Virus record (IMG/VR): IMGVR_UViG_3300032093_000003
Strand: one strand, 5' to 3'
Length of the DNA stretch: 64,000 bases
Origin: a virus
Taxonomy: Duplodnaviria > Heunggongvirae > Uroviricota > Caudoviricetes
The notes below the pieces were generated by a model. It saw nothing but the letters and a program-made list of their open reading frames with translations, was not told the DNA's origin and did no database searches. Shown in pieces: positions 8,966 to 39,775 of the stretch. Position 1 is the first letter of the stretch. Each line of letters begins with the position of its first letter. The position numbers and the translations under genes are program-made.

Positions 8966-10252
8966 TTATTTTATTTTACTCATCAAATCTTTCATTCTCT
9001 TGAACTGTGGATTTTCGTATGCTTTTGATTCCGACAATACATTTGAAGAAGATGTTGATGGAGTTGAAGTGATTTTTTCTGAAACTGTTTCGGTTACTGG
9101 TTTTTTAGTTCCCAATTCAGATTTTATTGTGTTAAATAAGTTTTTAGACTCATTCATAGTAGAAATCGAATCAAATCTCTTCATAATATTCAATTTCTCC
9201 TGTTTTGTTGTTGAATGTTCAGTGAACAAACGAGTAGCGTAAGCCAAATTAGCATTGAATACCGCAACTTCATTTAATTTTTCCTTAAAAAGAACTAAAG
9301 CCTTTTTGTATTCTGCGTTTTGTTTTCTTAATTTAGAAACTTCTTCATTAATACCAAAAACACCTGAACCTGCTTTATATTTTTTCTTACTTGGTAATCC
9401 GGATCTGTCTAAACCACCTTTATTACCATGAGGATTTGATTTAGTTCTTGCGGCTTCAGTCGCCTCAATTGGTGTCCCATCTTCAGAACCTTCTGGTTCT
9501 TCGTATGTGAATGGTTCCTCTTCAGAAATATCTAATGTTGGATCTTCTTCATCAAGTGTTATTTCATAAACATTTTCTTCACCTAATTCAGGATCCATGT
9601 CCATTTCTTCTTCCAATTCAGGTTCCATACCCATTTCTTCTTCCAATTCAGGTTCCATACCCATTTCTTCTTCCAATTCAGGATCCATGTCCATTTCTTC
9701 AGAAAGATCTTCTGTGTATGGTGATTCTTCTTCTAGATCTTCGTCACCTTCACCATCTAATTTAATGATATATTCATCACCGTCGATTTCAAGATCAAGT
9801 TCATCATCATCTTTTTTAACAATAATACCATCTTCAGGTTTCATTGCTTTAAAAACTTTAAGAACTTCATCGTGAGAAGCGCCTGTCATGTCCATAACAC
9901 CACTATCGTCAGATGGTTCGTCTTCATATGATGTTTCGTCTTCATCATCAGAAGGTAATTCTTCATCATCAGAAGTCTCATCATCAGAAGGTAACTCTTC
10001 ATCATCAGAAGTTTCATCTTCATCGGAGGTTGTGTCATCACCAGCATCATCGGCTGTTACATCATCTTCCTCTTCTTCAGGATTGGGTTGTTCTTCAACA
10101 TCCTTTTCCTCTTCTTCCAAACTTTCTTTAAGCAATTCGTTTAGTTCTTGTTTCATTGTTGAAGCAAGTATACCTTTTGCATTTGCTTTTACTGCTTCTT
10201 CAAGATTTTGTACTTGAAGTAACGCTTGTTCTAAAACTGATTTTTCGGTCAT
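8966..10252 (-). CDS. prohead scaffolding protein (acidic, tandem-repeat)
   Basis: Extremely D/E-rich, repeats EEMGMEPELEEEM and TSDDEELPSDDE encoded by 30-bp and 27-bp tandem DNA repeats; position between protease and capsid genes. Confidence 0.55.
   Translation of the reverse strand: MTEKSVLEQALLQVQNLEEAVKANAKGILASTMKQELNELLKESLEEEEKDVEEQPNPEEEEDDVTADDAGDDTTSDEDETSDDEELPSDDETSDDEELPSDDEDETSYEDEPSDDSGVMDMTGASHDEVLKVFKAMKPEDGIIVKKDDDELDLEIDGDEYIIKLDGEGDEDLEEESPYTEDLSEEMDMDPELEEEMGMEPELEEEMGMEPELEEEMDMDPELGEENVYEITLDEEDPTLDISEEEPFTYEEPEGSEDGTPIEATEAARTKSNPHGNKGGLDRSGLPSKKKYKAGSGVFGINEEVSKLRKQNAEYKKALVLFKEKLNEVAVFNANLAYATRLFTEHSTTKQEKLNIMKRFDSISTMNESKNLFNTIKSELGTKKPVTETVSEKITSTPSTSSSNVLSESKAYENPQFKRMKDLMSKIK
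9581..9710. repeat. 30-bp in-frame tandem repeats (x4) inside scaffold gene
   Basis: CCATTTCTTCTTCCAATTCAGGTTCCATAC repeated head-to-tail. Confidence 0.6.
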
Positions 10253-10332
10253 TTGCGAATTTTATTTTTATATAAATACTTTGATTATATAGAAAATTTA
10301 CTTTTAAGATATTAATATCAATAAAAAATTTA

Positions 10333-11016
10333 CTATTTTGATAAAAATGTATCTAGTCTACCCATTAATTTTTTCATTCTATCATCAACAACAGGTTTTC
10401 TCTCAATTGTTTCTTGATATTGTTCTCTGTCTTTTAAATCACTAAACACATATGCTCCGGGAGTCGATGGTGAGGAGACTAAGTCAAAACACACTAATTC
10501 AAAATCATCTTGTACTATGTTTTGTCCTTTTATATTTTTCAATGATCCTACACCTCTTGATGAAATACCTAAAGTGGCACCATTCATAATTAACATTGCC
10601 GCTTGATCACCTCTTGTACTTACGATACCCATTTTTTTCCAACCTGGTGATGTAAATAATTTAATTTTACCCATTAACATTTTACCATCCCACCATGTTT
10701 CAATGATTGAATGTGATACTCTATCTAAATCAATTAATGAAGATGAGGGGTGATTTAATTCATTTAAAGCACCACCTTTTTTTATTAAAGATTGATATTT
10801 TTCATTTTCTCTTTTTAATAAAACTTCAGGATAAATTCTACCATTTTTGTTTGGGGTATCGTATTTCTGTAAAACAGCAAAAAGGATAAGGTCTTGCGAA
10901 AAGTCCATATCCTTCATTTCTGAAATTATTTTTTTATTATCTTCTGGTGAGATATGGCCGGCATCATATTCTATTAATATACCATGTCCGGTTTCTTTTG
11001 GTCCTAATATCTTCAT
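10333..11016 (-). CDS. prohead core protease (T4 gp21-like)
   Basis: NGRIYP, ELNHP and GISSRGVGS motifs resembling the T4 gp21 prohead protease family; position after portal. Confidence 0.65.
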   Translation of the reverse strand: MKILGPKETGHGILIEYDAGHISPEDNKKIISEMKDMDFSQDLILFAVLQKYDTPNKNGRIYPEVLLKRENEKYQSLIKKGGALNELNHPSSSLIDLDRVSHSIIETWWDGKMLMGKIKLFTSPGWKKMGIVSTRGDQAAMLIMNGATLGISSRGVGSLKNIKGQNIVQDDFELVCFDLVSSPSTPGAYVFSDLKDREQYQETIERKPVVDDRMKKLMGRLDTFLSK

Positions 11017-11052
11017 TTATAGTTTTTATACTATAAATACATCGATATCGTA

Positions 11053-11478
11053 CTATTTTTTTGTTTTATAAAAATTAAACAAGTTTTTATCTACCAATGA
11101 TTCGTTAATTATTGTTTTTATAATATCCGTAATTATTCTTTTTGTGTCTTTAGATTTAACATCAAATTTATTTTCAACATATAATGTTATTTCTAAATTC
11201 ATAAAAGATCTTTTTTCTTTTTTTATTCCTTTGGTTCTTATGTCTAAATCTACAATAGATTGTGGTTTAAAATTTTGATGATTTAAATCGTATATTAATC
11301 TTTTTATATCTCTCCTTGTTTTAAAAATCACACTATCAAAGTCATCATTTTCATTATTTGGTTGTAACCAAGAATTTAATTTTAAATAAATTGTTTTTAG
11401 ATTTTTAAAATCTACGGTTCCATATCCGATCTTAACATCATCGTATGTTCCCAAAGGAATAAACTTTCCTGTCTTCAT
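11053..11478 (-). CDS. hypothetical protein (head morphogenesis region)
   Basis: 141-aa ORF in head module. Confidence 0.3.
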   Translation of the reverse strand: MKTGKFIPLGTYDDVKIGYGTVDFKNLKTIYLKLNSWLQPNNENDDFDSVIFKTRRDIKRLIYDLNHQNFKPQSIVDLDIRTKGIKKEKRSFMNLEITLYVENKFDVKSKDTKRIITDIIKTIINESLVDKNLFNFYKTKK

Positions 11479-11768
11479 TATTTTTTACATATTAAAAATA
11501 TTTTATGGTGTAAATAAAAAATATGAAAAATTATCCACAAAACCAAATTTTTTTTGTATATATGGGTATAATTATAAAATATGATTATTATTGATTTAAC
11601 TAAAGAAAAAAATTTGGAGTCTGCGTTAAGAACCTATAAACATAAAGTTCAAAAAACAAAATTGATCCAAGAACTTAGAAAAAGAAAGGAGTTTGTAAAA
11701 CCTTCGGTAGAAAAAAGAGATTTGAAATTAAAAGCAATCCACACCAGTAAAATTAAAAATGGTCTCGA

Positions 11769-12521
11769 TTAATCAAGACCATTTTTTAATTCTTTAAGTT
11801 TATAGTAACCGTACTTTGTGGTTTCCGTTTTCATCACTTCAGTTTTCACATTATTTAATTTAGTTACTAATTCAACATCATCTTTTGATTCAAGAATAGT
11901 TGAATCTATTTTAGATACTATGGATTCTTTTAAATTTTTAACTTTATCTTTAAGTTCATTTTCATTTAAAGAAACAATTTCTTTTAATTCTTTCTTTTCG
12001 TTTTCATTTAAAGAATTGTCAAATATAGTGTTAAAATTATTTGTCAATACGGCGTGTAGTAAATTTTGATTTTTAATAAAAATGGAAGATTTATTTTCAT
12101 TTACTGTTTTGTTTTTTTTTCCAGTTAAAAAATCAATTAATTTTTTCTTTGCGGATATTTTTTTGTCTATGTTTAATAGATTATCATTCTCAGACAATAG
12201 ATCTAACATTTTATAAATCTCATTATTATCCTCAACTTGAACATCTTTTAATTCGACATCCAATTCTTCCATTATTTTATTTAGACTTTTTAAATTTTTT
12301 GATTTAAGTAATGAACTTATTTGATCTACATATTCTTTAGCAACATCAAGATCTTCAATGTCTTTATTTTCGATGTCTTCATACAACAAATACAATTCCT
12401 TAAAATCTTTATTTTCTTTAATTGTACCTAATATGTCCTTTAATTCACCCTTGTTATTTTTAATATAAGAGTCTGTTATTTTTTTTAACAACTTCATCTT
12501 TAATGATCCAAAATTTTTCAT
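11769..12521 (-). CDS. hypothetical coiled-coil protein (possible prohead core/scaffold-associated)
   Basis: 250-aa K/E/L/N-rich ORF between portal and protease genes. Confidence 0.3.
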   Translation of the reverse strand: MKNFGSLKMKLLKKITDSYIKNNKGELKDILGTIKENKDFKELYLLYEDIENKDIEDLDVAKEYVDQISSLLKSKNLKSLNKIMEELDVELKDVQVEDNNEIYKMLDLLSENDNLLNIDKKISAKKKLIDFLTGKKNKTVNENKSSIFIKNQNLLHAVLTNNFNTIFDNSLNENEKKELKEIVSLNENELKDKVKNLKESIVSKIDSTILESKDDVELVTKLNNVKTEVMKTETTKYGYYKLKELKNGLD

Positions 12522-20055: not shown

Positions 20056-21159
20056 TTATTGATTTGATAGAGATAATTTTTTATCGATTATCTTACTTTT
20101 TAAATCTAATATTTTTTCTATATACCCATTTCTTCTAAGTAACTTGAATGTTAAGTTTTCATATGAGTACTCACCACCAGATTCTAAACCACTCTGTCTA
20201 AAGTTTTTTATCTTCTTATATAAGTCTTTAGTTTCTTTTGTTATATCATCACCACTTTCCATTTTAGATAATAAATCATCTATTTGCTTTCCATATTCTT
20301 CACCCTTTTGTAATATTTTTTTATCATCTATTTTTGGATTTGTCTTTTCAGGTGTGACAACCCATTTGTTATTTAATATAGAGTAAACACCAGATGATAC
20401 ATGTTCTTGATGAATATCTTGAACGTATATTTCAAGATCAAAACCTTTTATTTTAATGTCGTGTTTCGATTTCCAAACTTTTTCTTTTGAATCAAAAAAA
20501 TCTTGAACTATTTTATGTAAGATAGTGGAATCTTCTTTTTCTTTATTATCAAATTCATCCATGTCAACTAATATGTGTAAATCAACATCTGAAAATTCCG
20601 ACCAATTATAGTTTGCCAAAGATCCGGTAAGAACTATATCGTGAATAAAAAATTCAACATCAATAAAATCTAAATATTCATTGGTGATTTCCAATAGTTT
20701 TTTTCTAATGTCGTCTTTAATAACATATTCTTTCCCAACTCTACGAAATATGTTTGGACATAATGTATCTTTACTTCTAAAAGATTTAATTATCTTTTTA
20801 TCAACTTCCTTGTCTTCAATTAGTTCTTCAAATAAAGATTTTTTTGGTTTTTTATTTAAAATATAATTAATCAAGTTAATCATATTTTCAGATGTAAAGC
20901 CCTGAGTACCTATCGTACCATTTGGTCTTCTAAGTAATTCTATTGGAACCAATTTAAATTCACCATCAATAATTGATGGAATATTATCAACTTTTAAAAG
21001 ATTAAGTAAATTCGACCTGTGATTACCATCTGATATGATATATGTATCGTCTGGCATTTTTGATAAAGTAACAGGATCTGTTTTTACGTATTCGTAAATT
21101 TTTTCAATTTTATCGGGATCCTCTCTTAATTTAAAAATTAGTTCTTTAAATTCACTCAT
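20056..21159 (-). CDS. ParB-like N-terminal domain / nucleotidyltransferase-fold protein
   Basis: DGNHR motif near N-terminus; GS-x(n)-DxD (TGSLANYNWSEFSDVDLHILVD) Pol-beta-type NTase signature. Confidence 0.4.
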   Translation of the reverse strand: MSEFKELIFKLREDPDKIEKIYEYVKTDPVTLSKMPDDTYIISDGNHRSNLLNLLKVDNIPSIIDGEFKLVPIELLRRPNGTIGTQGFTSENMINLINYILNKKPKKSLFEELIEDKEVDKKIIKSFRSKDTLCPNIFRRVGKEYVIKDDIRKKLLEITNEYLDFIDVEFFIHDIVLTGSLANYNWSEFSDVDLHILVDMDEFDNKEKEDSTILHKIVQDFFDSKEKVWKSKHDIKIKGFDLEIYVQDIHQEHVSSGVYSILNNKWVVTPEKTNPKIDDKKILQKGEEYGKQIDDLLSKMESGDDITKETKDLYKKIKNFRQSGLESGGEYSYENLTFKLLRRNGYIEKILDLKSKIIDKKLSLSNQ

Positions 21160-21401
21160 TTTACCTTTTTGTACTTATAAGTTTTCGCAATATTTGCGTT
21201 AAAAAACTTCCCTTGAGATTCCGCTAATCTTAATTTAGCAAAAATATCCCACGGTACTTTATTATACTCATAAATACCACCATTATTGAAAGTAATCGTC
21301 AAATCTTGACTTTCAGTATCATACAATGCTGATTTTAGATTTGATGAATTGATTTCAACTGTAATAAGTTTTCCTTCGATTTTTTCTGAAATGATTCCCA
21401 T
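21156..21401 (-). CDS. hypothetical small protein
   Basis: 81-aa ORF with start overlapping upstream gene. Confidence 0.3.
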   Translation of the reverse strand: MGIISEKIEGKLITVEINSSNLKSALYDTESQDLTITFNNGGIYEYNKVPWDIFAKLRLAESQGKFFNANIAKTYKYKKVK

Positions 21402-21471: not shown

Positions 21472-21831
21472 TTAATTAAGAGAAATTAGTTTTTCCAAAG
21501 TTTTTTTCTTTGAAATTGGTAATGTTAATTCTAACACACCATTTTCGACCTTACCTTCAATTTGATTTTCATTTACCTCATCAGGTAAAGTGTAGGTTTT
21601 TGTGAAGTTTGGTACAAATGTCGAACCACCTTCTTTTTCAAAAGTGATTTTCAAAATACCATCTTTTGTGGTGATCTTGAGATCACTCTTGGTTAGTCCC
21701 GGTACAGGAATAGTTACAACATAACCTGTTTCATCTTTATTAACTTTGGTTTTCGGAACATTAAGTTCTCTTTCAAATTCAAACATTTTATCAAATGCCT
21801 GAAAAAATGGGTCTTTAAATAATGTAATCAT
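21472..21831 (-). CDS. Hsp20/alpha-crystallin family small heat-shock protein
   Basis: ACD-like pattern DETGYVVTIPVPGLTKSDLKITTKDGILKITFEKE. Confidence 0.6.
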   Translation of the reverse strand: MITLFKDPFFQAFDKMFEFERELNVPKTKVNKDETGYVVTIPVPGLTKSDLKITTKDGILKITFEKEGGSTFVPNFTKTYTLPDEVNENQIEGKVENGVLELTLPISKKKTLEKLISLN

Positions 21832-22846: not shown

Positions 22847-24862
22847 ATGTCAGTAGATTTCATTGATGATGGGCAACCAACAAACCAAAATAAGAAAGGT
22901 AAGAGAAATTCTAATACACCTATATTAGATAATTTCTCAAGAGATTTGATAAAATTAGCACAAGAAGGTAAAATAGACCCTATTGTTGGTAGAGATAAAG
23001 AAGTAAAAAGAATTGCACAAATTCTTTCAAGAAAGAAGAAAAATAATGTTGTTATTGTGGGTGATGCCGGTGTGGGTAAATCGGCATTGGTTGAAAAATT
23101 GGCGCTATTGATTAATAAAGGTAACTGTCCTTCAAATCTTTTAGATAAAAGAATAATGTCATTGGATTTGACATCTTTAGTTGCGGGTACCAAGTATAGG
23201 GGTCAATTTGAAGAAAGGATTAAAGCGATATTAAATGAATTACAAGAAGCACCGAATGTAATTGTTTTTATTGATGAATTACACACAATGGTCGGTGCAG
23301 GTAATGCCAGCGGATCAATGGATGCAGCCAACATATTAAAACCCGCACTTGCTCGTGGTGAAATTCAATGTATTGGTGCAACAACTTTTGATGAATACAA
23401 AAAGAACATCGAAAAAGATTCTGCGTTAGTTAGAAGATTCCAAAAAATAATCTTACCGGAACCAACAGAAAAAGAAACTGTTGAAATTTTGGAAAATCTT
23501 AAAACATCATATGAGAATTTTCATAAAGTAAAATATGAAGATGGTGTTATTGATACTATTGTTAAAGTATCAAAAAGATTTATGACTGACAGACAATTTC
23601 CTGATAAGGCAATTGATATTATGGATGAATTAGGTTCAGAAAAGAAAATATCTAATAAAATACCTGAAAGTGTTGAAAAATTAAAACAAGAAGTTGAGGA
23701 AATAAAACAAAAAAAATTAGATGTCGTTAAAACACAGAATTATGAATTGGCAGCTAAATTAAGAGATACAGAAAAAACTGTTCTATCAAAATTAGAACAA
23801 GAAAAAGAAAAATGGTTGATAAACCAACAAAATAATAAAACACCAATTAGTATTGAAGATGTTTACCAGATAATTTCAAATATTACTGGTGTACCAATTA
23901 CAAAATTGGATTCAAAAGAAACAGAAAAACTTTTGAATTTAGATAAAATTTTAACATCTAAGGTTATTGGACAGAATGAGGCGATATCAATCATATCTAA
24001 ATGTATCAGAAGAAATAGAGTTGGTATTAAAGATACAAATAAACCAATCGGATCATTTATATTCTTAGGATCAACTGGTGTCGGTAAAACATATCTTGCA
24101 AAATCATTGGCTGAAATATTATTTGGTGATCCCGAAAAAATGATTCGTGTGGATATGAGTGAATTTATGGAGAAACACAATGTATCTAAATTAATTGGTT
24201 CACCTCCCGGTTACGTTGGATATGATGAAGGTGGTCAATTAACAGAAAAGGTAAAAAACAATCCATTTTCAGTTATATTGTTTGATGAAATTGAAAAGGC
24301 ACATAAAGATGTTTTCAATTTGTTGTTACAAATTTTAGATGAAGGACACTTAACCGATTCTTTTGGTAGAAAAGTTAACTTCACCAATACTTTGATTATT
24401 ATGACATCAAATGTTGGGGCTAAAAAAGTTTCTGAATTTGGTGGGGGAGTTGGTTTTGAAACATCTTCAACAAATAAACAAAAAGAAGAAGTTAAAAAAA
24501 CAATGATACAAAAATCATTGAAACAACAATTCAATCCTGAATTTTTAAATAGAATTGATGATGTAATCCTTTTCAATTCTTTAGACGAAAATGCACTAAA
24601 ACAAATTATTGGTGTTGAATTAAATAAATTAAAAAATAGATTAACTGAAAAAGGATACAAAGTTAATTTTGACGAATCAGTATCACAAAAGATATATGAA
24701 TTAAATCAACAAGAAGAATATGGAGCGAGACCCATAAAAAGAATAATACAAAATCTTTGTGAGGATTTCTTAAGTGAAGAAATTCTAAAAGGTACTATAA
24801 AAGAAAATGTTTTAGCAAATTTGAAAATTAAAGACGGAGAATTGGTAATTAGAAAAAAATAA
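22847..24862 (+). CDS. Hsp100/Clp ATPase (ClpB/ClpC-like, two AAA+ modules, no N-domain)
   Basis: NBD1 GDAGVGKSA / VIVFIDELHTMVGAG; NBD2 GSTGVGKT / SVILFDEIEKAHKDVFNLLLQILDEG; GSPPGYVGYDEGGQLTE signature; coiled-coil middle segment. Confidence 0.85.
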   Translation: MSVDFIDDGQPTNQNKKGKRNSNTPILDNFSRDLIKLAQEGKIDPIVGRDKEVKRIAQILSRKKKNNVVIVGDAGVGKSALVEKLALLINKGNCPSNLLDKRIMSLDLTSLVAGTKYRGQFEERIKAILNELQEAPNVIVFIDELHTMVGAGNASGSMDAANILKPALARGEIQCIGATTFDEYKKNIEKDSALVRRFQKIILPEPTEKETVEILENLKTSYENFHKVKYEDGVIDTIVKVSKRFMTDRQFPDKAIDIMDELGSEKKISNKIPESVEKLKQEVEEIKQKKLDVVKTQNYELAAKLRDTEKTVLSKLEQEKEKWLINQQNNKTPISIEDVYQIISNITGVPITKLDSKETEKLLNLDKILTSKVIGQNEAISIISKCIRRNRVGIKDTNKPIGSFIFLGSTGVGKTYLAKSLAEILFGDPEKMIRVDMSEFMEKHNVSKLIGSPPGYVGYDEGGQLTEKVKNNPFSVILFDEIEKAHKDVFNLLLQILDEGHLTDSFGRKVNFTNTLIIMTSNVGAKKVSEFGGGVGFETSSTNKQKEEVKKTMIQKSLKQQFNPEFLNRIDDVILFNSLDENALKQIIGVELNKLKNRLTEKGYKVNFDESVSQKIYELNQQEEYGARPIKRIIQNLCEDFLSEEILKGTIKENVLANLKIKDGELVIRKK

Positions 24863-25236: not shown

Positions 25237-25291
25237 AATTTGGGGGGAATATAAATTCCCCCTAATTTTGTTAAACTAAAATTCCCAATTT

Positions 25292-25717
25292 ATGGAAGAA
25301 AAAAAATATGTCGGAGATTTAATTCTTTTAAGAGGAGTACCAGGTAGTGGTAAATCTACATTAGGTAAAACAATTTTAAGATGTTTAGCTTCAGATGATC
25401 CTGACGTTATTTCTGCGGATGATTTTTTTCTTGACGAAAAGGGTAATTATATTTTTGATTCCACAAAATTAAAAGAGGCACATGCACAATCACAACAAAG
25501 ATGTGCAACAAAAATGAAAAATGAATTTTCAAGAATTGTTGTCGCGAATACCTTTACACAGAAATGGGAAATGGACGCATATTACGAAATGGCGGAAAGA
25601 TACAATTACAGGGTTTTTAGTGTGATTGTTGAAAATAGACACGGAAATTTAAATATTCACGATGTTCCCGAAGAAAAAGTTGAACAAATGAAAAATAGAT
25701 TTGATGTTTCTCTTTAA
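25292..25717 (+). CDS. P-loop kinase (polynucleotide kinase-like, AAA_33-type)
   Basis: Walker A GVPGSGKST at N-terminus, small size, immediately upstream of RNA ligase. Confidence 0.55.
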   Translation: MEEKKYVGDLILLRGVPGSGKSTLGKTILRCLASDDPDVISADDFFLDEKGNYIFDSTKLKEAHAQSQQRCATKMKNEFSRIVVANTFTQKWEMDAYYEMAERYNYRVFSVIVENRHGNLNIHDVPEEKVEQMKNRFDVSL

Positions 25718-26787
25718 TGTTAGATATATTAGAAAAATATCACAATGATGGTCTGTTATTAAAACAGACACACCCAACATTACCTTTAACAATTTGGAAT
25801 TACTCACCAAAAGTTCAATATGATAACTTATGGGATGATGTTATTATTCAATGTAGAGGATTAGTTACCGATGTTGATGGTAATATTGTTGCTCGACCTT
25901 TTCCAAAATTTTTTAATTACGAAGAATTAAAACCCGAACAGATACCAAACGAACCATTTGATGTTTTTGAAAAATTAGATGGGTCTTTAGGTATATTATT
26001 TAATTATGAAGGTCAATGGGTATTTGCAACTCGTGGATCATTTACATCCGATCAAGCAAAAAGAGGATGGGAACTTCTTCAAAAATATGACTACCAAAGA
26101 TTAATTGAGGATAAAACATATCTATTTGAAATAATTTATAAAGAAAATCGTATTGTTGTTGATTATGATTATGAAGATCTAATAATGCTCGGTGTAATTG
26201 ACAATATCGATGGTTACGAATATAAAATATTTGACGAAAGAATCCATCTTGAAGGTGTTAGGTTCGTTAATATGTATAGAAATCTTGGATTTAAATTTGT
26301 TAAAAAATATGATGGTATAAAAGACTATTCAACCCTAAAAGAAATAATCAAAGATAATGAAGAGGGATTCGTTATTAGATTTCAAAATGGGTTTAGAATG
26401 AAAATAAAAGGTGTAGAATATTGTCGTCTCCATAAAATCCTAACAAACATCTCAAATAGAGATATTTGGGAATCTTTAAAAAATGGAGAATCATTAGATA
26501 AAATTATTGAAAAGGTACCCGATGAATTTTATAATTGGGTAAAAGAAACAAAAAATAAATTTGAGTCAGAATTTGATAAAATAAAAAAAGAATATGAATG
26601 GATATTCAAAGTTATTATGAGATCGGAAAATTCAAATGAAAGAAAAGTATTCGCACAATTTGCAATAAAATACAAATATTCTTCAATTCTATTTTCTATG
26701 TATGATAATAAACCATATAATCAAACAATATGGAAAATCCTATATCCTGAGTATTCGAAACCTTTTAAAAAAAATGATAATGAGTAA
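25717..26787 (+). CDS. RNA ligase (T4 Rnl1-like nucleotidyltransferase)
   Basis: Motif I lysine in FEKLDGSLG (compare T4 RnlA TKEDGSL); start overlaps kinase stop. Confidence 0.6.
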   Translation: MLDILEKYHNDGLLLKQTHPTLPLTIWNYSPKVQYDNLWDDVIIQCRGLVTDVDGNIVARPFPKFFNYEELKPEQIPNEPFDVFEKLDGSLGILFNYEGQWVFATRGSFTSDQAKRGWELLQKYDYQRLIEDKTYLFEIIYKENRIVVDYDYEDLIMLGVIDNIDGYEYKIFDERIHLEGVRFVNMYRNLGFKFVKKYDGIKDYSTLKEIIKDNEEGFVIRFQNGFRMKIKGVEYCRLHKILTNISNRDIWESLKNGESLDKIIEKVPDEFYNWVKETKNKFESEFDKIKKEYEWIFKVIMRSENSNERKVFAQFAIKYKYSSILFSMYDNKPYNQTIWKILYPEYSKPFKKNDNE

Positions 26788-27208
26788 ATTAAAATTGTAT
26801 TTAGACGATGTTCGTGTTCCAAAAGACAATAGTTGGATTCTTGTAAAAGACTATGGTGAATTTGTAAGTACCATATTAAAACATGGTTTAGAAAGTTTTG
26901 ATACCATTTCTTTGGATCACGATTTGGGTGAGACTGCAATGGCTGAATATTTTAACAATGTTTACCCAAACTATGAACTGAACTACGATAACATAAAAGA
27001 AAAAACTGGATTGGATTGTGCGAAATGGTTGGTGAATCATTATTTGGAAAAACCAAAAGAAAATTTTACCTTTCCACTTGTTTATACTCATTCCGCAAAC
27101 CCGATAGGTTCCGCAAATATTATGGGTTATATAAACAATTTTTTAAAAAACATGAGACAACCCCAAACATGTATTAGGGTACGTATTGATCACACAATAA
27201 ACGAATAA
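26774..27208 (+). CDS. receiver-like (Rossmannoid) domain protein, possibly RNA-repair associated
   Basis: LYLDDVR ... ISLDHDLGE pattern reminiscent of CheY-like/cyclic-phosphate-processing receiver domains; start chosen at internal ATG 26774. Confidence 0.3.
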   Translation: MIMSKLKLYLDDVRVPKDNSWILVKDYGEFVSTILKHGLESFDTISLDHDLGETAMAEYFNNVYPNYELNYDNIKEKTGLDCAKWLVNHYLEKPKENFTFPLVYTHSANPIGSANIMGYINNFLKNMRQPQTCIRVRIDHTINE

Positions 27209-27672
27209 TGAATATATTTTTTTTAGATAAAGATCCAAAAAAATGTGCAGAATACCATTGTGATAAACATGTTGTTAAAATGATATTGGAAACCGCACAA
27301 TTATTATGTTCCGCACATTGGGTAACAGGTTCACAAGCACAATACAAATTATCTCACAAAAATCACCCATGTTCAATATGGGTCAGGGAATCACTATCAA
27401 ACTATTTGTACCTTTGCGAAATTGGATTGGAATTATGTTACGAATACACATATCGTTATGGTAAAAAACATAAATCACAAGAAGTAATTGAATGGTGTGT
27501 AATAAATAAAGTAAAAATTTCTGACAAAGGTATTACAGAATTACCTAAAGCAATGCCAGATAAATACAAAGTTAGTTGTCCAATACAATCATATAGAAAT
27601 TATTATATTGGTGACAAAATAAATTTTGCATCTTGGAAAAATAGAGAGACACCTTTTTGGTTTTCCAATTAA
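27208..27672 (+). CDS. hypothetical protein (conserved FFLDKDPKKCAEYHCDKHVVKMILETAQLL N-terminus)
   Basis: ORF with Cys/His-rich N-terminal block; family not assigned. Confidence 0.3.
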   Translation: MNIFFLDKDPKKCAEYHCDKHVVKMILETAQLLCSAHWVTGSQAQYKLSHKNHPCSIWVRESLSNYLYLCEIGLELCYEYTYRYGKKHKSQEVIEWCVINKVKISDKGITELPKAMPDKYKVSCPIQSYRNYYIGDKINFASWKNRETPFWFSN

Positions 27673-27684
27673 TTTTAAATATCT

Positions 27685-28020
27685 TTGAAAAAAAATTTAA
27701 TGAAAACATACAGCAATGACATCGTGGTTGATTTGACTAAAAATTATCAAGATTTTCGCCATTTCTATGATGAAAATAAAAGTATAATTTATAAATCAAT
27801 TATTGAGATTTTCGAAAAATTTAAAACAACCAAGAAAAAAAATCTAAAACTTCTTGTTAAAGCAACAATCATGGATTTGGAATTTGAAACCGAATTCTGT
27901 TATCGTAAAAATGAGAATTTTGTATTAATGAGGGATCTAATGCCGTATTTTGAACAAATAGAAGATTTCGAGACTTGCACGAGAATAAGAGATTTAAGTA
28001 AAGAATTAAACACCATATAA
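27685..28020 (+). CDS. hypothetical protein
   Basis: 111-aa ORF. Confidence 0.3.
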   Translation: MKKNLMKTYSNDIVVDLTKNYQDFRHFYDENKSIIYKSIIEIFEKFKTTKKKNLKLLVKATIMDLEFETEFCYRKNENFVLMRDLMPYFEQIEDFETCTRIRDLSKELNTI

Positions 28021-28370
28021 TGAAAATAATCGTTGCGGGTGGTCGTGATTTTAGTGATTACGAACTACTAAAAGAAAAATTAGACGAATTGATTGGTGAA
28101 AATAAAGAGGATCTCGAAATAGTTTCAGGAATGGCTAGAGGGGCTGATACTTTAGGGGTACAATACGCGAATGAGAGAGGTTACAAAATTAAGAAGTTTC
28201 CAGCACAATGGGATAAGTACGGAAAGAGTGCGGGTTATAAAAGAAATGAAGAAATGGCGAATTATGGTAATACTTGTATTTGTTTTTGGGATGGTAATAG
28301 TAAGGGCACGAAACATATGATCGATCTATCAAATAAATATAAATTAAACACTATTGTTATTAGATATTGA
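28020..28370 (+). CDS. SLOG / DUF2493-family protein (DprA/LOG-like Rossmann fold)
   Basis: IVAGGRDF ... GMARGADTLGVQYA ... FPAQWDKYGKSAGYKRNEEMA ... FWDGNSKGTKHMI pattern typical of phage DUF2493 proteins. Confidence 0.5.
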   Translation: MKIIVAGGRDFSDYELLKEKLDELIGENKEDLEIVSGMARGADTLGVQYANERGYKIKKFPAQWDKYGKSAGYKRNEEMANYGNTCICFWDGNSKGTKHMIDLSNKYKLNTIVIRY

Positions 28371-28399
28371 TCTATATTTAACAAAAAAATATTACATAA

Positions 28400-28434
28400 A
28401 TGTCAACTAAAAAAAAGTTGACATTTTTTTTTTA
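28400..28434 (+). terminator. intrinsic terminator
   Basis: ATGTCAACTAAAAAAAAGTTGACATTTTTTTTT. Confidence 0.5.
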
Positions 28435-37354: not shown

Positions 37355-38277
37355 GGAAACGATAAAGTTCTTTGAAAATATTGGGCGGTCTATAGTCCAT
37401 AAAATAAACCATGAAAGTGGTATAAAGTGGAATACCTTGGTTTTGGTATTCTGCGGCTTGGGTAACCGAGCTCGAGTAGACAAACGAGATATCGTCTGAC
37501 CTTTAGTACTGAGGGTAACACTGTAGGGAAAGTGGTTGGGCGATCAAGCGATGTGGGTCGTTTGGTTGAGGTGGGAACACCAATAAGAATAACTCGTAGA
37601 ATTATTGCAAGAAATGTTGTTATCCGACTTCATAATTGCGTTTTTCAATATTATGGTTGTCTTAAAACCGAAAGGTATGTTAGTGTACAGGTGGTGCTGT
37701 TATTAACCTTAACCTTAGCCTACCAAGGCATGAGTTATGAAGATGAGCAAAAATATGGAGGTGGGGACATCTCAGAGGGTAGTTTAGTATTTAGCCGTTC
37801 AAAAGATGGCTGAGCTGGTGACGAACCACTACCTTCACAATCCACAAACCAATAACTTGCATCCATTTAATTGCAAAATTAATAAATCAAGGAAAAGTGT
37901 TCGTCAGTTGTGGATGACAGGTCACTACATAGTCATGAGTTGTTCATGGCCATGAAGGGTCCCAAGCCCAACATGATTTTCACCAAAGTTCTCTAATCTC
38001 GCAAGGATTAATTGGGGTGGCAACCTCGAAGAGTGATGAGTAATGAGAGAGTGATTCACAACTTAAGGATTGGTTAATCTAATTGACCGTGACTGATTAT
38101 TACTACTCAAAAGGTAGTGGATAAGGGAAGAATCAATAATGTCCCAAAGATAATCACCCGAACGTGTAATCTCAGCGTTTTATTTTCCTGATTTTTATAA
38201 AATCATGGTGGTGGAGTAATAAAAAGATTTCATGCCGCAAGGCCCCAAAGGTTAGATTTTTCTAACCTTTTTTTGTT
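37355..38277 (+). ncRNA. candidate large structured ncRNA (~920 nt; GOLLD/ROOL-like class or novel)
   Basis: Promoter-to-terminator unit without credible ORF (only a 93-aa low-complexity ORF), GC well above flanking coding DNA, directly adjacent to tRNA array, ends in a strong intrinsic terminator. Confidence 0.4.
38247..38277 (+). terminator. intrinsic terminator ending the long ncRNA unit
   Basis: AAAGGTTAGATTTTTCTAACCTTTTTTTG. Confidence 0.55.
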
Positions 38278-38306
38278 TTTATATTTTTTTTATTTATATT
38301 ATACCT

Positions 38307-39059
38307 ATGAGATTAATTTGTATATCAGACACACATTCTTTACATGAAAGAATGACACATAAAGTTGAAAAATATATCGATCCTGATCAAGACAATATAC
38401 TCATCCATGCGGGGGATTGTACTAATATGGGTAGAGAACCTGAAATTATTGAATTTGTTTATTGGTATCAAAATTTAAAAGGATTTGATACCAAGATCTT
38501 TATTGCGGGTAATCATGATTTTGGTTTTGAACATTATAATGGTCTTCGTCATAGTAATGAGGCACCTTGGTTACATCATATAATAAATGAGGAGAATTTA
38601 TCTCAATCAGATGTCGTTTATCTTCATGATTCTGAATTTGTAATTGAACATCCGAAATTTTCAAGACCAATTAAATTTTATGGAAGTCCTTGGCAACCTG
38701 AATTTTATAATTGGGCATTTAATCTTCCAAGAAATGGTTGGGAGTTAGAACTTAAATGGAAAGAAATACCAGATGATACTGATATATTGATCACACACGG
38801 ACCTCCACATGGTTGTAGAGATTTTACACCACAAAATTTACAAGTTGGTTGTGAATTGTTGAGATATAGATTAGATACATTAAAACCACTTGTCCATGTG
38901 TTTGGACATATTCATCATGCATATGGTGGTGCATATATTGATGATGTTTTATACATTAACGCATCAACATGTACAGAAAGATATGTCCCACGTAATAGAC
39001 CTATTGTTGTTGATTTAAAAGAAGAAGATGGTAAAATAGTTACTACCTATATTGATTAA
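38307..39059 (+). CDS. calcineurin-like metallophosphoesterase
   Basis: Motifs GDCTNMG, AGNHDF, HGPP, GHIHHAYGG matching MPP superfamily signatures. Confidence 0.7.
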   Translation: MRLICISDTHSLHERMTHKVEKYIDPDQDNILIHAGDCTNMGREPEIIEFVYWYQNLKGFDTKIFIAGNHDFGFEHYNGLRHSNEAPWLHHIINEENLSQSDVVYLHDSEFVIEHPKFSRPIKFYGSPWQPEFYNWAFNLPRNGWELELKWKEIPDDTDILITHGPPHGCRDFTPQNLQVGCELLRYRLDTLKPLVHVFGHIHHAYGGAYIDDVLYINASTCTERYVPRNRPIVVDLKEEDGKIVTTYID

Positions 39060-39382: not shown

Positions 39383-39775
39383 GGGGGTGTCCAGGTATTG
39401 ATTGGCGTTTATATGGTAAATGGGCACGTAGTCAGATGTCATCTATGACTTAAATCTACGGTGGTAAAAATCAAACGGCAACGTTTACAACAACATGGAA
39501 ATTGCAGGTATCCTTGCAACTTCTAAAGTAGCTGCTTAATAAGTACCTACTGTCGGGTCGGTTAGGACATATAACCCAGGAACAGAAGTCCGTTATACGG
39601 GTCACAGGTCAGAGCTCGTTTAAAATAATTCTGAGACCAAGTTGTTTGTAGGTAGGTTTCTCACATATATCAAACCTAATATTTTGGAACATTGAGAACC
39701 AATGTTATACTAAACGTGTAGTCCATCTATTGTATGGCGAACAAGACAAGGGTTCGATTCCCTTCACCTCCACCA
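39383..39775 (+). ncRNA. ssrA: tmRNA (ssrA), phage-encoded
   Basis: 5' GGGGGTG pairs with 3' CACCTCC-A-CCA (G3:U70), T-arm AAGGG-TTCGATT-CCCTT, ~390 nt ORF-less, internal tag frame ...GILATSKVAA followed by TAA at 39537-39539, flanked by promoter and terminator. Confidence 0.7.

Follow-up and report, generated by a model that had tools for sequence, protein, structure and literature searches.

Does the gene cluster next to a large array of transfer RNA (tRNA) genes in the virus record IMGVR_UViG_3300032093_000003 encode a pathway for the repair of broken RNA? The cluster occupies positions 25292 to 28370 on the + strand of a 64-kb stretch (the window) out of a contig of approximately 287 kb. 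Its first three genes encode a P-loop kinase of the polynucleotide kinase (Pnk) clade, an RNA ligase of the Rnl1 family and a cREC (cyclic-phosphate processing receiver) protein. A preliminary description of the sequence had likened the cluster to the tRNA repair of phage T4, with additional components. On balance, the core of the block is probably an RNA repair pathway of the "heal and seal" type, split over separate genes and comparable to T4 Pnkp plus Rnl1.

The block comprises six co-directional open reading frames (ORFs) that overlap or lie at most 27 nucleotides (nt) apart. The five genes listed initially were recovered on the + strand, with ORF boundaries identical to those that independent gene calling in metagenomes had given for four further contigs of this phage; a sixth gene (27700 to 28020), encoding a protein of 106 amino acids (aa), had been missed. 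The start of the ligase gene overlaps the kinase stop at 25717, and the overlap between the ligase gene and the cREC gene amounts to 14 nt. The cREC gene shares position 27208 with the gene of a protein resembling T4 endonuclease V (DenV), a gap of 27 nt separates this gene from the 106-aa gene, and position 28020 is common to the latter and a SLOG gene. Two terminator-like hairpins on the + strand, each an 11-pair stem followed by a T-run, bracket the block. The upstream hairpin (25240 to 25265) is located just 3' of a 59-aa lipoprotein-like ORF and 27 nt ahead of the kinase start, and the downstream hairpin (28398 to 28426) 28 nt past the SLOG stop codon. The hairpin scan yielded 9 terminator-like sites in the scanned stretch, compared to 1.7 expected, and none on the + strand between these two. 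Because its genes overlap or nearly abut and are bracketed by hairpins, the block looks like a single transcription unit. The overlapping starts and stops of the kinase, ligase and cREC genes within this unit count in favor of a shared role in repair.

The first gene (25292 to 25717) encodes a stand-alone kinase of 141 aa, which carries the P-loop GVPGSGKST and matches Pfam AAA_33 (E value of 9.8e-14) as well as PHROG 2071, PHROG 505 ("polynucleotide kinase") and PHROG 8238. A family profile (A1) was built from 21 members in related contigs and compared to PDB. The top matches were 9d8a ("Rhizopus azygosporus Kinase") and 9drz, two entries without a stated function (E values of 7e-6 to 1e-5), directly followed by T4 Pnk (1ly1/1ltq; 1.3e-5 to 2.4e-5) and then by Capnocytophaga Pnkp1 (4xrp), the kinase domain of C. 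thermocellum Pnkp (4gp7) and seryl-tRNA(Sec) kinase. Asp43, which is invariant in the family, aligns with Asp35, the catalytic general base of T4 Pnk. Near-invariant elements further include the P-loop, the motif SNTF and the lid motif ENRH. The early assignment to the polynucleotide-kinase type is therefore supported by the profile, which reaches T4 Pnk at approximately 1e-5, and by the aligned aspartates. The similarity to Pnk extends to the kinase part only, as the 141-aa chain ends after the lid and has no match to a HAD (DxDxT) phosphatase. Since the phosphatase domain is absent, the protein classifies by sequence as a Pnk-clade kinase and not as a T4-type bifunctional Pnkp. It is predicted to phosphorylate RNA 5'-OH ends.

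The second gene (25717 to 26787) encodes a 356-aa ATP-dependent RNA ligase of the Rnl1 family, the predicted sealing enzyme. It matches Pfam RNA_lig_T4_1 with 74.1 bits (cut-off of 28.3; E value of 1.9e-20) and PHROG 562 (4.8e-71). The match to NCBIfam TIGR02308 ("T4 RnlA family") covers positions 49 to 357 of 373, reaching into the C-terminal region, at 70.5 bits, which is under the equivalog cut-off of 242. Sequence matches in PDB are to structures of T4 Rnl1 only (2c5u, 5tt6 and 9do4; E value of approximately 3e-11). In the HMMER alignment with T4 Rnl1 (2c5u/9do4), motif I reads EKLDGSL in the ligase and TKEDGSL in T4, so that the motif-I lysine recognized at the outset is in place. Motifs III, IV and V, the presence of which had been proposed as a check, align as well (LFEII with NFEFV, EGFVIRF with EGYVAVM and MKIKG with FKIKS, respectively). 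The same holds for two N-terminal elements, CRGLV (CRGIM in T4) and PKFFN (EKFFN in T4). The Arg of CRG and the Lys and Phe of KFF are essential ATP-binding residues of T4 Rnl1, as established by mutagenesis. The lysine of the T4 SKGS element is replaced by Arg in the ligase (TRGS). The nearest relatives from isolated phages are ligases of Streptomyces phages, at 36 to 40% identity. As the motifs align, the equivalog cut-off is missed and even the nearest isolates are this distant, the protein is, on sequence criteria, a divergent Rnl1-family member rather than a T4 RnlA equivalog. In a related phage (L129, positions 9195 to 12191; also in L130 to L134), the Rnl1-like ligase gene is split directly past motif III (…YLFEIIY / …NRIVVDY…) by an insert of approximately 1.1 kb with a GIY-YIG-like homing-endonuclease ORF, and a LAGLIDADG-like ORF is located between kinase and ligase. 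Either an intron or a free-standing endonuclease could account for the insert.

The conservation of this gene order was analyzed in related viral loci, 79 centered on cREC and 61 on the ligase, in which relatives of the window genes were located by tblastn and profile hidden Markov models. These loci comprise 47 distinct layouts around the ligase and 45 around cREC, counts that are inflated by shared descent because the sample stems mostly from one phage lineage; around the ligase, a gene was scored as present when found within 10 kb. The kinase occurs near the ligase in 34 of the 47 layouts, always on the same strand, and is directly adjacent in 18, so the pair proposed initially does travel together. 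cREC accompanies the ligase in 14 of the 47. Around cREC, the ligase is found in 17 of the 45 layouts (adjacent in 7), a metallophosphoesterase resembling MPPED2 in 14 (within 3 kb in 13 of them), the kinase in 10, the DenV-like gene in 8, an RNase H-like gene (PF04308) in 7, the SLOG gene in 5 and the 106-aa gene in 4. The full six-gene order is limited to the nearest relatives (L002/L003), which share 46 to 88% identity per gene. Based on these counts, kinase and ligase form a robust pair, cREC is a recurrent but mobile partner, and the DenV-like, 106-aa and SLOG genes are lineage-local passengers. The last three accompany the cluster in close relatives only, and their inclusion among its components is not upheld.

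The synteny data also bear on the view that the genes are early or auxiliary genes brought together by chance, the ligase being a tail fiber attachment factor like gp63 and the kinase a generic nucleotide kinase. This view can draw on the label of PHROG 562 ("RNA ligase and tail fiber protein attachment catalyst") and on the phage itself, a freshwater jumbo phage with T4-like genes for the capsid (Gp23), portal (Portal_T4) and prohead protease. Auxiliary regions of phages are also mosaic, and the DenV-like, SLOG and glycosyltransferase-like neighbors would fit such mosaicism. However, the adjacency of kinase and ligase persists in 18 of the 47 layouts while everything else is reshuffled. In addition, the kinase matches the N terminus and the ligase the C terminus of PHROG 8238 (737 positions), showing that fused kinase-ligase proteins exist. 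The positions aligned with the nucleotidyl-transfer motifs of T4 Rnl1 are kept, and the best function-named PDB matches of the kinase profile are polynucleotide kinases. We therefore consider chance juxtaposition very unlikely.

The third gene (26774 to 27208) encodes the cREC protein, a predicted end-healing enzyme of 144 aa. It matches Pfam cREC_REC (PF20274) with 71.6 bits (cut-off of 27; E value of 8.7e-20) over profile positions 2 to 88 of 88, and its AlphaFold model adopts a receiver (CheY-like) fold with a mean predicted local distance difference test score of 92.7. Together, the match and the model identify as cREC what had been noted as a receiver-like Rossmannoid protein. Across 65 homologues, D11, D12, R14, P16, D48-H-D-L-G and H106-S-A-N-P-I-G are invariant. 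In the model, D11 and D12 come after strand 1, D48 stands at the end of strand 3 and S107 comes after strand 4. We take these residues to correspond, respectively, to the aspartates that bind the metal, the Asp that accepts the phosphoryl group and the conserved Thr/Ser of CheY-type receivers. Judged by the model, cREC keeps the acidic DD/D/S pocket of a receiver, and it does so without a histidine-kinase partner or an output domain. The protein is predicted to heal 2',3'-cyclic phosphate or 3'-phosphate ends.

This prediction has a precedent. The Aravind group named cREC and proposed that it resolves 2',3'-cyclic phosphates, with operonic links to RNA ligases (PMC7824862). The sections devoted to it likewise predict the processing of 2',3'-cyclic ends beside RNA ligases (PMC7824862, sections 3.4.8 and 3.4.9; PMC9503650, section 3.7.3), and cREC is stated there to occur in up to 18% of jumbo phages (PMC9503650). 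When the cREC alignment was used to scan 185,579 species genomes, six fragments of metagenome-assembled genomes were the only hits, one of them from a Runella assembly; they provided neither independent cellular operons nor a firm host.

From the observed homology, folds, conserved catalytic residues, gene packing and kinase-ligase synteny, we infer the enzymatic activities, their substrates and a role in counter-defense as follows. A host ribonuclease, for example an anticodon nuclease, would cut tRNA, and the break would expose a 2',3'-cyclic phosphate on one side and a 5'-OH on the other. Phosphorylation of the 5'-OH would fall to the stand-alone kinase, and cREC would open and/or remove the cyclic phosphate or 3'-phosphate, probably via an aspartyl-phosphate intermediate in its receiver-type acidic pocket. 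An MPPED2-like metallophosphoesterase encoded at 38307 would possibly assist cREC. The Rnl1-family ligase would then seal the 3'-OH and 5'-phosphate ends, and the repair genes, together with 23 tRNAs and a transfer-messenger RNA (tmRNA) encoded downstream, would keep translation going during an attack on tRNA. Phospho-aspartate chemistry is favored for cREC because its receiver pocket is intact, and a cREC acting in this way would functionally replace the HAD domain found in T4 Pnkp. Direct end healing is also favored over an NAD+-dependent route, since the precomputed Pfam hits contain no sirtuin, KptA, Macro, Nudix or 2H domain anywhere in the window. The initial suggestion that extra components process 2',3'-cyclic ends fits cREC, in agreement with the published prediction, and the MPPED2-like esterase, but finds no support for the DenV-like and SLOG proteins or for the 106-aa protein.

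Several points weigh against this interpretation, in addition to the lineage bias of the layout counts. cREC is missing near the ligase in 33 of the 47 layouts. In four distant and diverse GenBank phages its neighbors are instead NAD+ salvage genes or the gene of a DNA polymerase, of a tRNA nucleotidyltransferase or of another Pnk, and because of these other neighbors its role may be independent of the ligase. T4 Rnl1 (gp63) additionally promotes tail fiber attachment. A conventional HAD or 2H healing enzyme could be encoded in the part of the contig outside the examined 64 kb. We know of no activity measurement for any member of the kinase, ligase and cREC subfamilies represented here. The literature search found no report of an experimental test of cREC, which is described as experimentally uncharacterized in the sections that treat it (PMC9503650).

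The remaining three genes of the block were assessed as possible further components. The gene at 27208 to 27672 (+) encodes a 154-aa protein that matches Pfam Pyr_excise (PF03013; 28.7 bits, cut-off of 23) and PHROG 624 (E value of 1.6e-57) and has the all-helical fold of T4 endonuclease V. The preliminary description had listed this gene as Cys/His-rich, but its product, called unknown there, can thus be assigned a fold. T4 endonuclease V has a catalytic Glu23, uses the amine of Thr2 as nucleophile and binds DNA through Arg3, Arg22 and Arg26. In an ungapped D-x-H-x6-E alignment, the invariant E28 of the DenV-like protein is in register with Glu23. Residue 2 is an invariant Asn instead of Thr, and I3, L27 and Q31 stand at the positions of R3, R22 and R26. 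A profile-profile comparison did not reach significance. Because of the Asn at residue 2 and the loss of the three DNA-binding arginines, its substrate may differ from that of the T4 enzyme. The family is strikingly conserved for a phage protein, with 7468 database hits, a mean column identity of 72% and 58 of 154 positions invariant, including the initial Met-Asn (40 clusters at 90% identity). It occurs in 628 GenBank phage records, mostly of cyanophages and Vibrio and Acinetobacter phages, a host spread unlike that of the cREC hits. The protein is regarded as co-transcribed and probably has a separate, nucleic-acid glycosylase-type function.

The 106-aa protein (27700 to 28020, +; alternative TTG start at 27685) is conserved but has no assigned function. 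Its family counts 131 cluster representatives, all of approximately 100 to 120 aa and with the C-terminal motif LPYFE..EDYE.C..I, and its gene is located directly 3' of cREC in some relatives. The protein has no Pfam or PHROG match, even at E values up to 10, and a resemblance of EDYE.C..I to a UVR-like motif was dropped for this reason. The last gene (28020 to 28370, +) encodes a 116-aa SLOG (DUF2493) protein, as recognized from the start, and belongs to the YAcAr family (PF10686: 64.1 bits, cut-off of 28.2, E value of 1.1e-17; PHROG 289: 2e-34). The DenV-like and SLOG proteins were considered as integral repair parts and rejected on synteny. All three proteins are regarded as co-transcribed and are not counted as repair components.

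These genes are central to a second interpretation, which divides the block into two modules. Kinase and ligase would still repair RNA, whereas cREC and the DenV-fold, 106-aa and SLOG proteins would counter host signaling by degrading immune messengers derived from NAD+ or ADP-ribose, such as cyclic ADP-ribose isomers, or cyclic nucleotides. Both cREC and viral YAcAr/SLOG proteins are predicted to process ADP-ribose derivatives in the pertinent sections of two surveys (PMC7824862, section 3.4.8; PMC9503650, sections 3.1 and 3.4.5). Elsewhere among phages, cREC occurs as a fusion with Nudix or is encoded beside NAMPT/PRPP synthetase or NMNAT/PnuC. Most cREC layouts lack a nearby ligase, and the DenV fold is an N-glycosylase fold. 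However, the cREC gene overlaps the ligase stop codon by 14 nt, and no Pfam hit for an NAD+-using or ADP-ribose-processing domain is found in the window. The proposed partners are also rare around cREC (SLOG in 5/45 layouts, DenV-like in 8/45), which is itself strongly linked to tRNA arrays. Taken together, a separate counter-signaling module appears unlikely.

The linkage to tRNA genes is visible in the window itself. ARAGORN predicts 23 tRNA genes for 19 amino acids, with none for Ala, between 29959 and 37205 (+), and Rfam predicts 22. Two of the 23 are located at 29.96 and 30.6 kb and 21 at 33.8 to 37.2 kb, a range for which approximately 30 had been estimated; that number was too high. The array is interrupted by protein-coding genes at 30.1 to 33.3 kb, including a Band_7/SPFH gene (31548 to 32492), and at 35.4 to 35.9 kb. 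In the middle of the array, a gene at 35403 to 35864 (+) encodes a PF04308 "RNaseH_like" (DUF458-type) protein. In another sub-lineage the PF04308 gene is found directly downstream of cREC (6 to 7 layouts), and this adjacency suggests that its product is another enzyme of the tRNA island. The tRNAs are likely clients or complements of the repair genes.

Downstream of the last tRNA gene, a full-length GOLLD RNA (37775 to 38178, +; Rfam RF02032, 338.5 bits, E value of 2e-96) precedes the MPPED2-like gene. As the entire 1.1-kb "intergenic" stretch (approximately 37206 to 38306) is conserved in relatives, a 93-aa ORF called by the gene finder at 37532 to 37813 is probably spurious. The calcineurin-like phosphoesterase reported at 38307 (38307 to 39059, +) is confirmed (Metallophos, E value of 6e-17) and can be specified as an MPPED2-like binuclear metallophosphoesterase. 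Its match to mammalian MPPED2 (PDB 3rl4; 1.7e-44) spans nearly the full length and is unexpectedly strong for a phage-to-animal comparison. In Flavobacterium phage vB_FspM_immuto, an MPPED2-like gene is located approximately 850 nt from cREC. The recurrence of such genes close to cREC counts in favor of the repair pathway, in which the esterase may be a second enzyme for the healing of 3' ends. The first 50 kb of immuto contain no gene with an RNA ligase annotation. A phage-encoded tmRNA follows at 39383 to 39775 (+; Rfam RF00023, 86.8 bits, E value of 2.7e-32); it was detected by Rfam and went unreported by ARAGORN.

Across the related viruses, 24 of 60 distinct cREC loci (17 of 40 after stricter dereplication) have a tRNA gene no more than 1 kb from cREC, compared to 0 of 45 for the ligase, a linkage that also counts in favor of the repair reading. 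The tRNAs in the cREC loci are nearly all on the cREC strand (442 of 457). GOLLD-like sequences occur in 21 of 79 cREC loci versus 1 of 61 ligase loci, 1.3 to 6.7 kb downstream of cREC in 14 distinct layouts, and a tmRNA is present in 23 of the 79 cREC loci. The far closer association of cREC genes than of ligase genes with tRNA arrays is new here; the text covered from the two cREC surveys makes no mention of a linkage between cREC and tRNA arrays (PMC7824862; PMC9503650).

These associations raise a third interpretation, in which the enzymes do not counter a nuclease but mature and quality-control the 23 tRNAs, tmRNA and GOLLD RNA of the phage itself, trimming and re-joining processing intermediates. 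The proximity of cREC to tRNA genes, its position upstream of GOLLD-like RNA, the shared strand and the PF04308 gene, which is located within the tRNA array here and next to cREC in 6 layouts, would all fit such housekeeping. On the other hand, ARAGORN found no intron-containing tRNA among the 23 in the window, and normal bacterial tRNA maturation has no need of a kinase-ligase step. The ligase genes, moreover, are the ones without tRNA genes within 1 kb. Housekeeping is accordingly a doubtful explanation, and we retain repair as the preferred one.

A broader and more speculative version of the repair hypothesis would make cREC more than a ligase accessory, a dedicated "tRNA island" enzyme, and the region from 25 to 40 kb a single translation-protection supermodule, consisting of the kinase, ligase, cREC, DenV-fold and SLOG proteins, the 23 tRNAs, the PF04308 nuclease, GOLLD, the MPPED2-like esterase and the tmRNA. 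It is motivated by cREC being linked, in this phage lineage, to tRNA arrays, tmRNA and GOLLD far more tightly than the ligase is. Within this scheme, tRNA repair would be scaffolded or sheltered by the GOLLD nanocage, and RNA or nucleotides, not DNA, would be the substrates of the DenV-fold and SLOG proteins. We regard it as a long shot.

At the DNA level, a search of GenBank phages with the block returned only short patches of 64 to 71% identity and no close sequenced relative. The closest cultured relative is phage immuto, with 58% identity in cREC. This relationship makes the earlier attribution to a phage of Bacteroidota plausible, although it does not prove the host. Elsewhere in the window, a gene for ribosomal protein S21 (11581 to 11772, +; PF01165 and PHROG 21469) is located inside the T4-like structural module of portal, protease and Gp23, on the opposite strand. 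Shortly upstream of the block, a gene at 20056 to 21159 (−) encodes a 367-aa protein that carries a GS...DxD motif and has sub-threshold matches to Pol-beta-type nucleotidyltransferases (NTP_transf_2, E value of 0.0012; MTPAP-like, 0.002); it is a possible RNA 3'-end-adding enzyme. Next to this gene are those for a KTSC-domain protein (21156 to 21401, −), an HSP20 (21472 to 21831, −) and a ClpB/ClpC-like double AAA+ ATPase (22847 to 24862, +).

Attack on tRNA is a widespread last-line defense of bacteria, and T4 Pnkp and Rnl1 form a tRNA restriction-repair pathway that counters PrrC. To our knowledge, it is the sole phage repair answer that has been worked out biochemically. The cluster described here presents a compact case in which the T4 phosphatase domain is gone and a receiver-fold cREC, translationally coupled to the ligase, stands in its place. 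If cREC heals 2',3'-cyclic phosphate ends, it would represent a new enzyme class in RNA repair, in which the fold of two-component receivers serves as a phosphoesterase for RNA ends; should it have another role, the published prediction falls. The concept itself is unsurprising. The value of the locus is in offering a clean, minimal test case for cREC, together with the lead provided by the cREC/tRNA-array association.

Compared to T4 Pnkp/Rnl1, the cluster likewise has a 5' kinase of the Pnk clade and a ligase of the Rnl1 family that shares the catalytic motifs, in a phage with T4-like structural genes, and presumably the same logic of healing ends with a 5'-OH or a 2',3'-cyclic phosphate before sealing. 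It differs in that the kinase is a stand-alone protein of 141 aa without the HAD phosphatase domain of Pnkp, so that 3'-end healing would have to come from cREC and/or the MPPED2-like esterase. The ligase is also distant from T4 Rnl1 (E value of approximately 3e-11) and closer to those of Streptomyces phages. The Pnkp/Hen1 system of C. thermocellum and the Pnkp1-Rnl-Hen1 system of Capnocytophaga likewise combine a Pnk-clade kinase (matches to 4gp7 and 4xrp), a calcineurin-type metallophosphoesterase that removes 2',3'-cyclic phosphates or 3'-phosphates, and an ATP-dependent ligase. In those systems, a single fused polypeptide carries all three activities and is paired with the Hen1 methyltransferase, whereas here the genes are separate, the esterase is MPPED2-like and encoded 10 kb away, and no Hen1 is seen in the window. 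Fungal and plant Trl1 (ligase, kinase and 2H domains, followed by Tpt1) shares the three-activity heal-and-seal scheme with a P-loop kinase and a ligase of the Rnl1 superfamily. It differs in that the window has no Pfam hits for 2H or Tpt1/KptA, and in that the ligase matches T4 Rnl1 and not the Trl1 ligase domains among PDB sequences. Stand-alone Trl1-type modules exist in Mucorales and lancelet (PMC10946426).

The closest counterpart is found among published phage neighborhoods. Those combining a kinase, Rnl1 and cREC have already been described computationally (Iyer et al. 2021, Viruses, PMC7824862; 2022, Viruses, PMC9503650), so the proposal made for this locus was not novel as an idea. 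The type 2 neighborhood, as outlined for V5 and Mydo, comprises a sirtuin, a T4-like tRNA ligase, cREC, a nucleotide kinase and MazG, with or without a calcineurin-like protein (PMC9503650). As in this neighborhood, a T4-like ligase, cREC and a nucleotide kinase are encoded side by side here, with a calcineurin-like phosphoesterase in the island. In contrast to V5 and Mydo, which infect enterobacteria, the relatives here are Flavobacterium phages, the genes called in the 64-kb window have no SIR2 or MazG Pfam hit, and the block continues with genes for a protein with the DenV fold, for an orphan and for a YAcAr SLOG. By sequence content, the cluster is therefore the ligase-cREC-kinase core of the published neighborhood type, without sirtuin and MazG. 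As it has no bifunctional Pnkp, it does not belong to the exact T4 system, but by analogy it would work like T4 Pnkp/Rnl1. It constitutes a new instance of a predicted and already published repair neighborhood.

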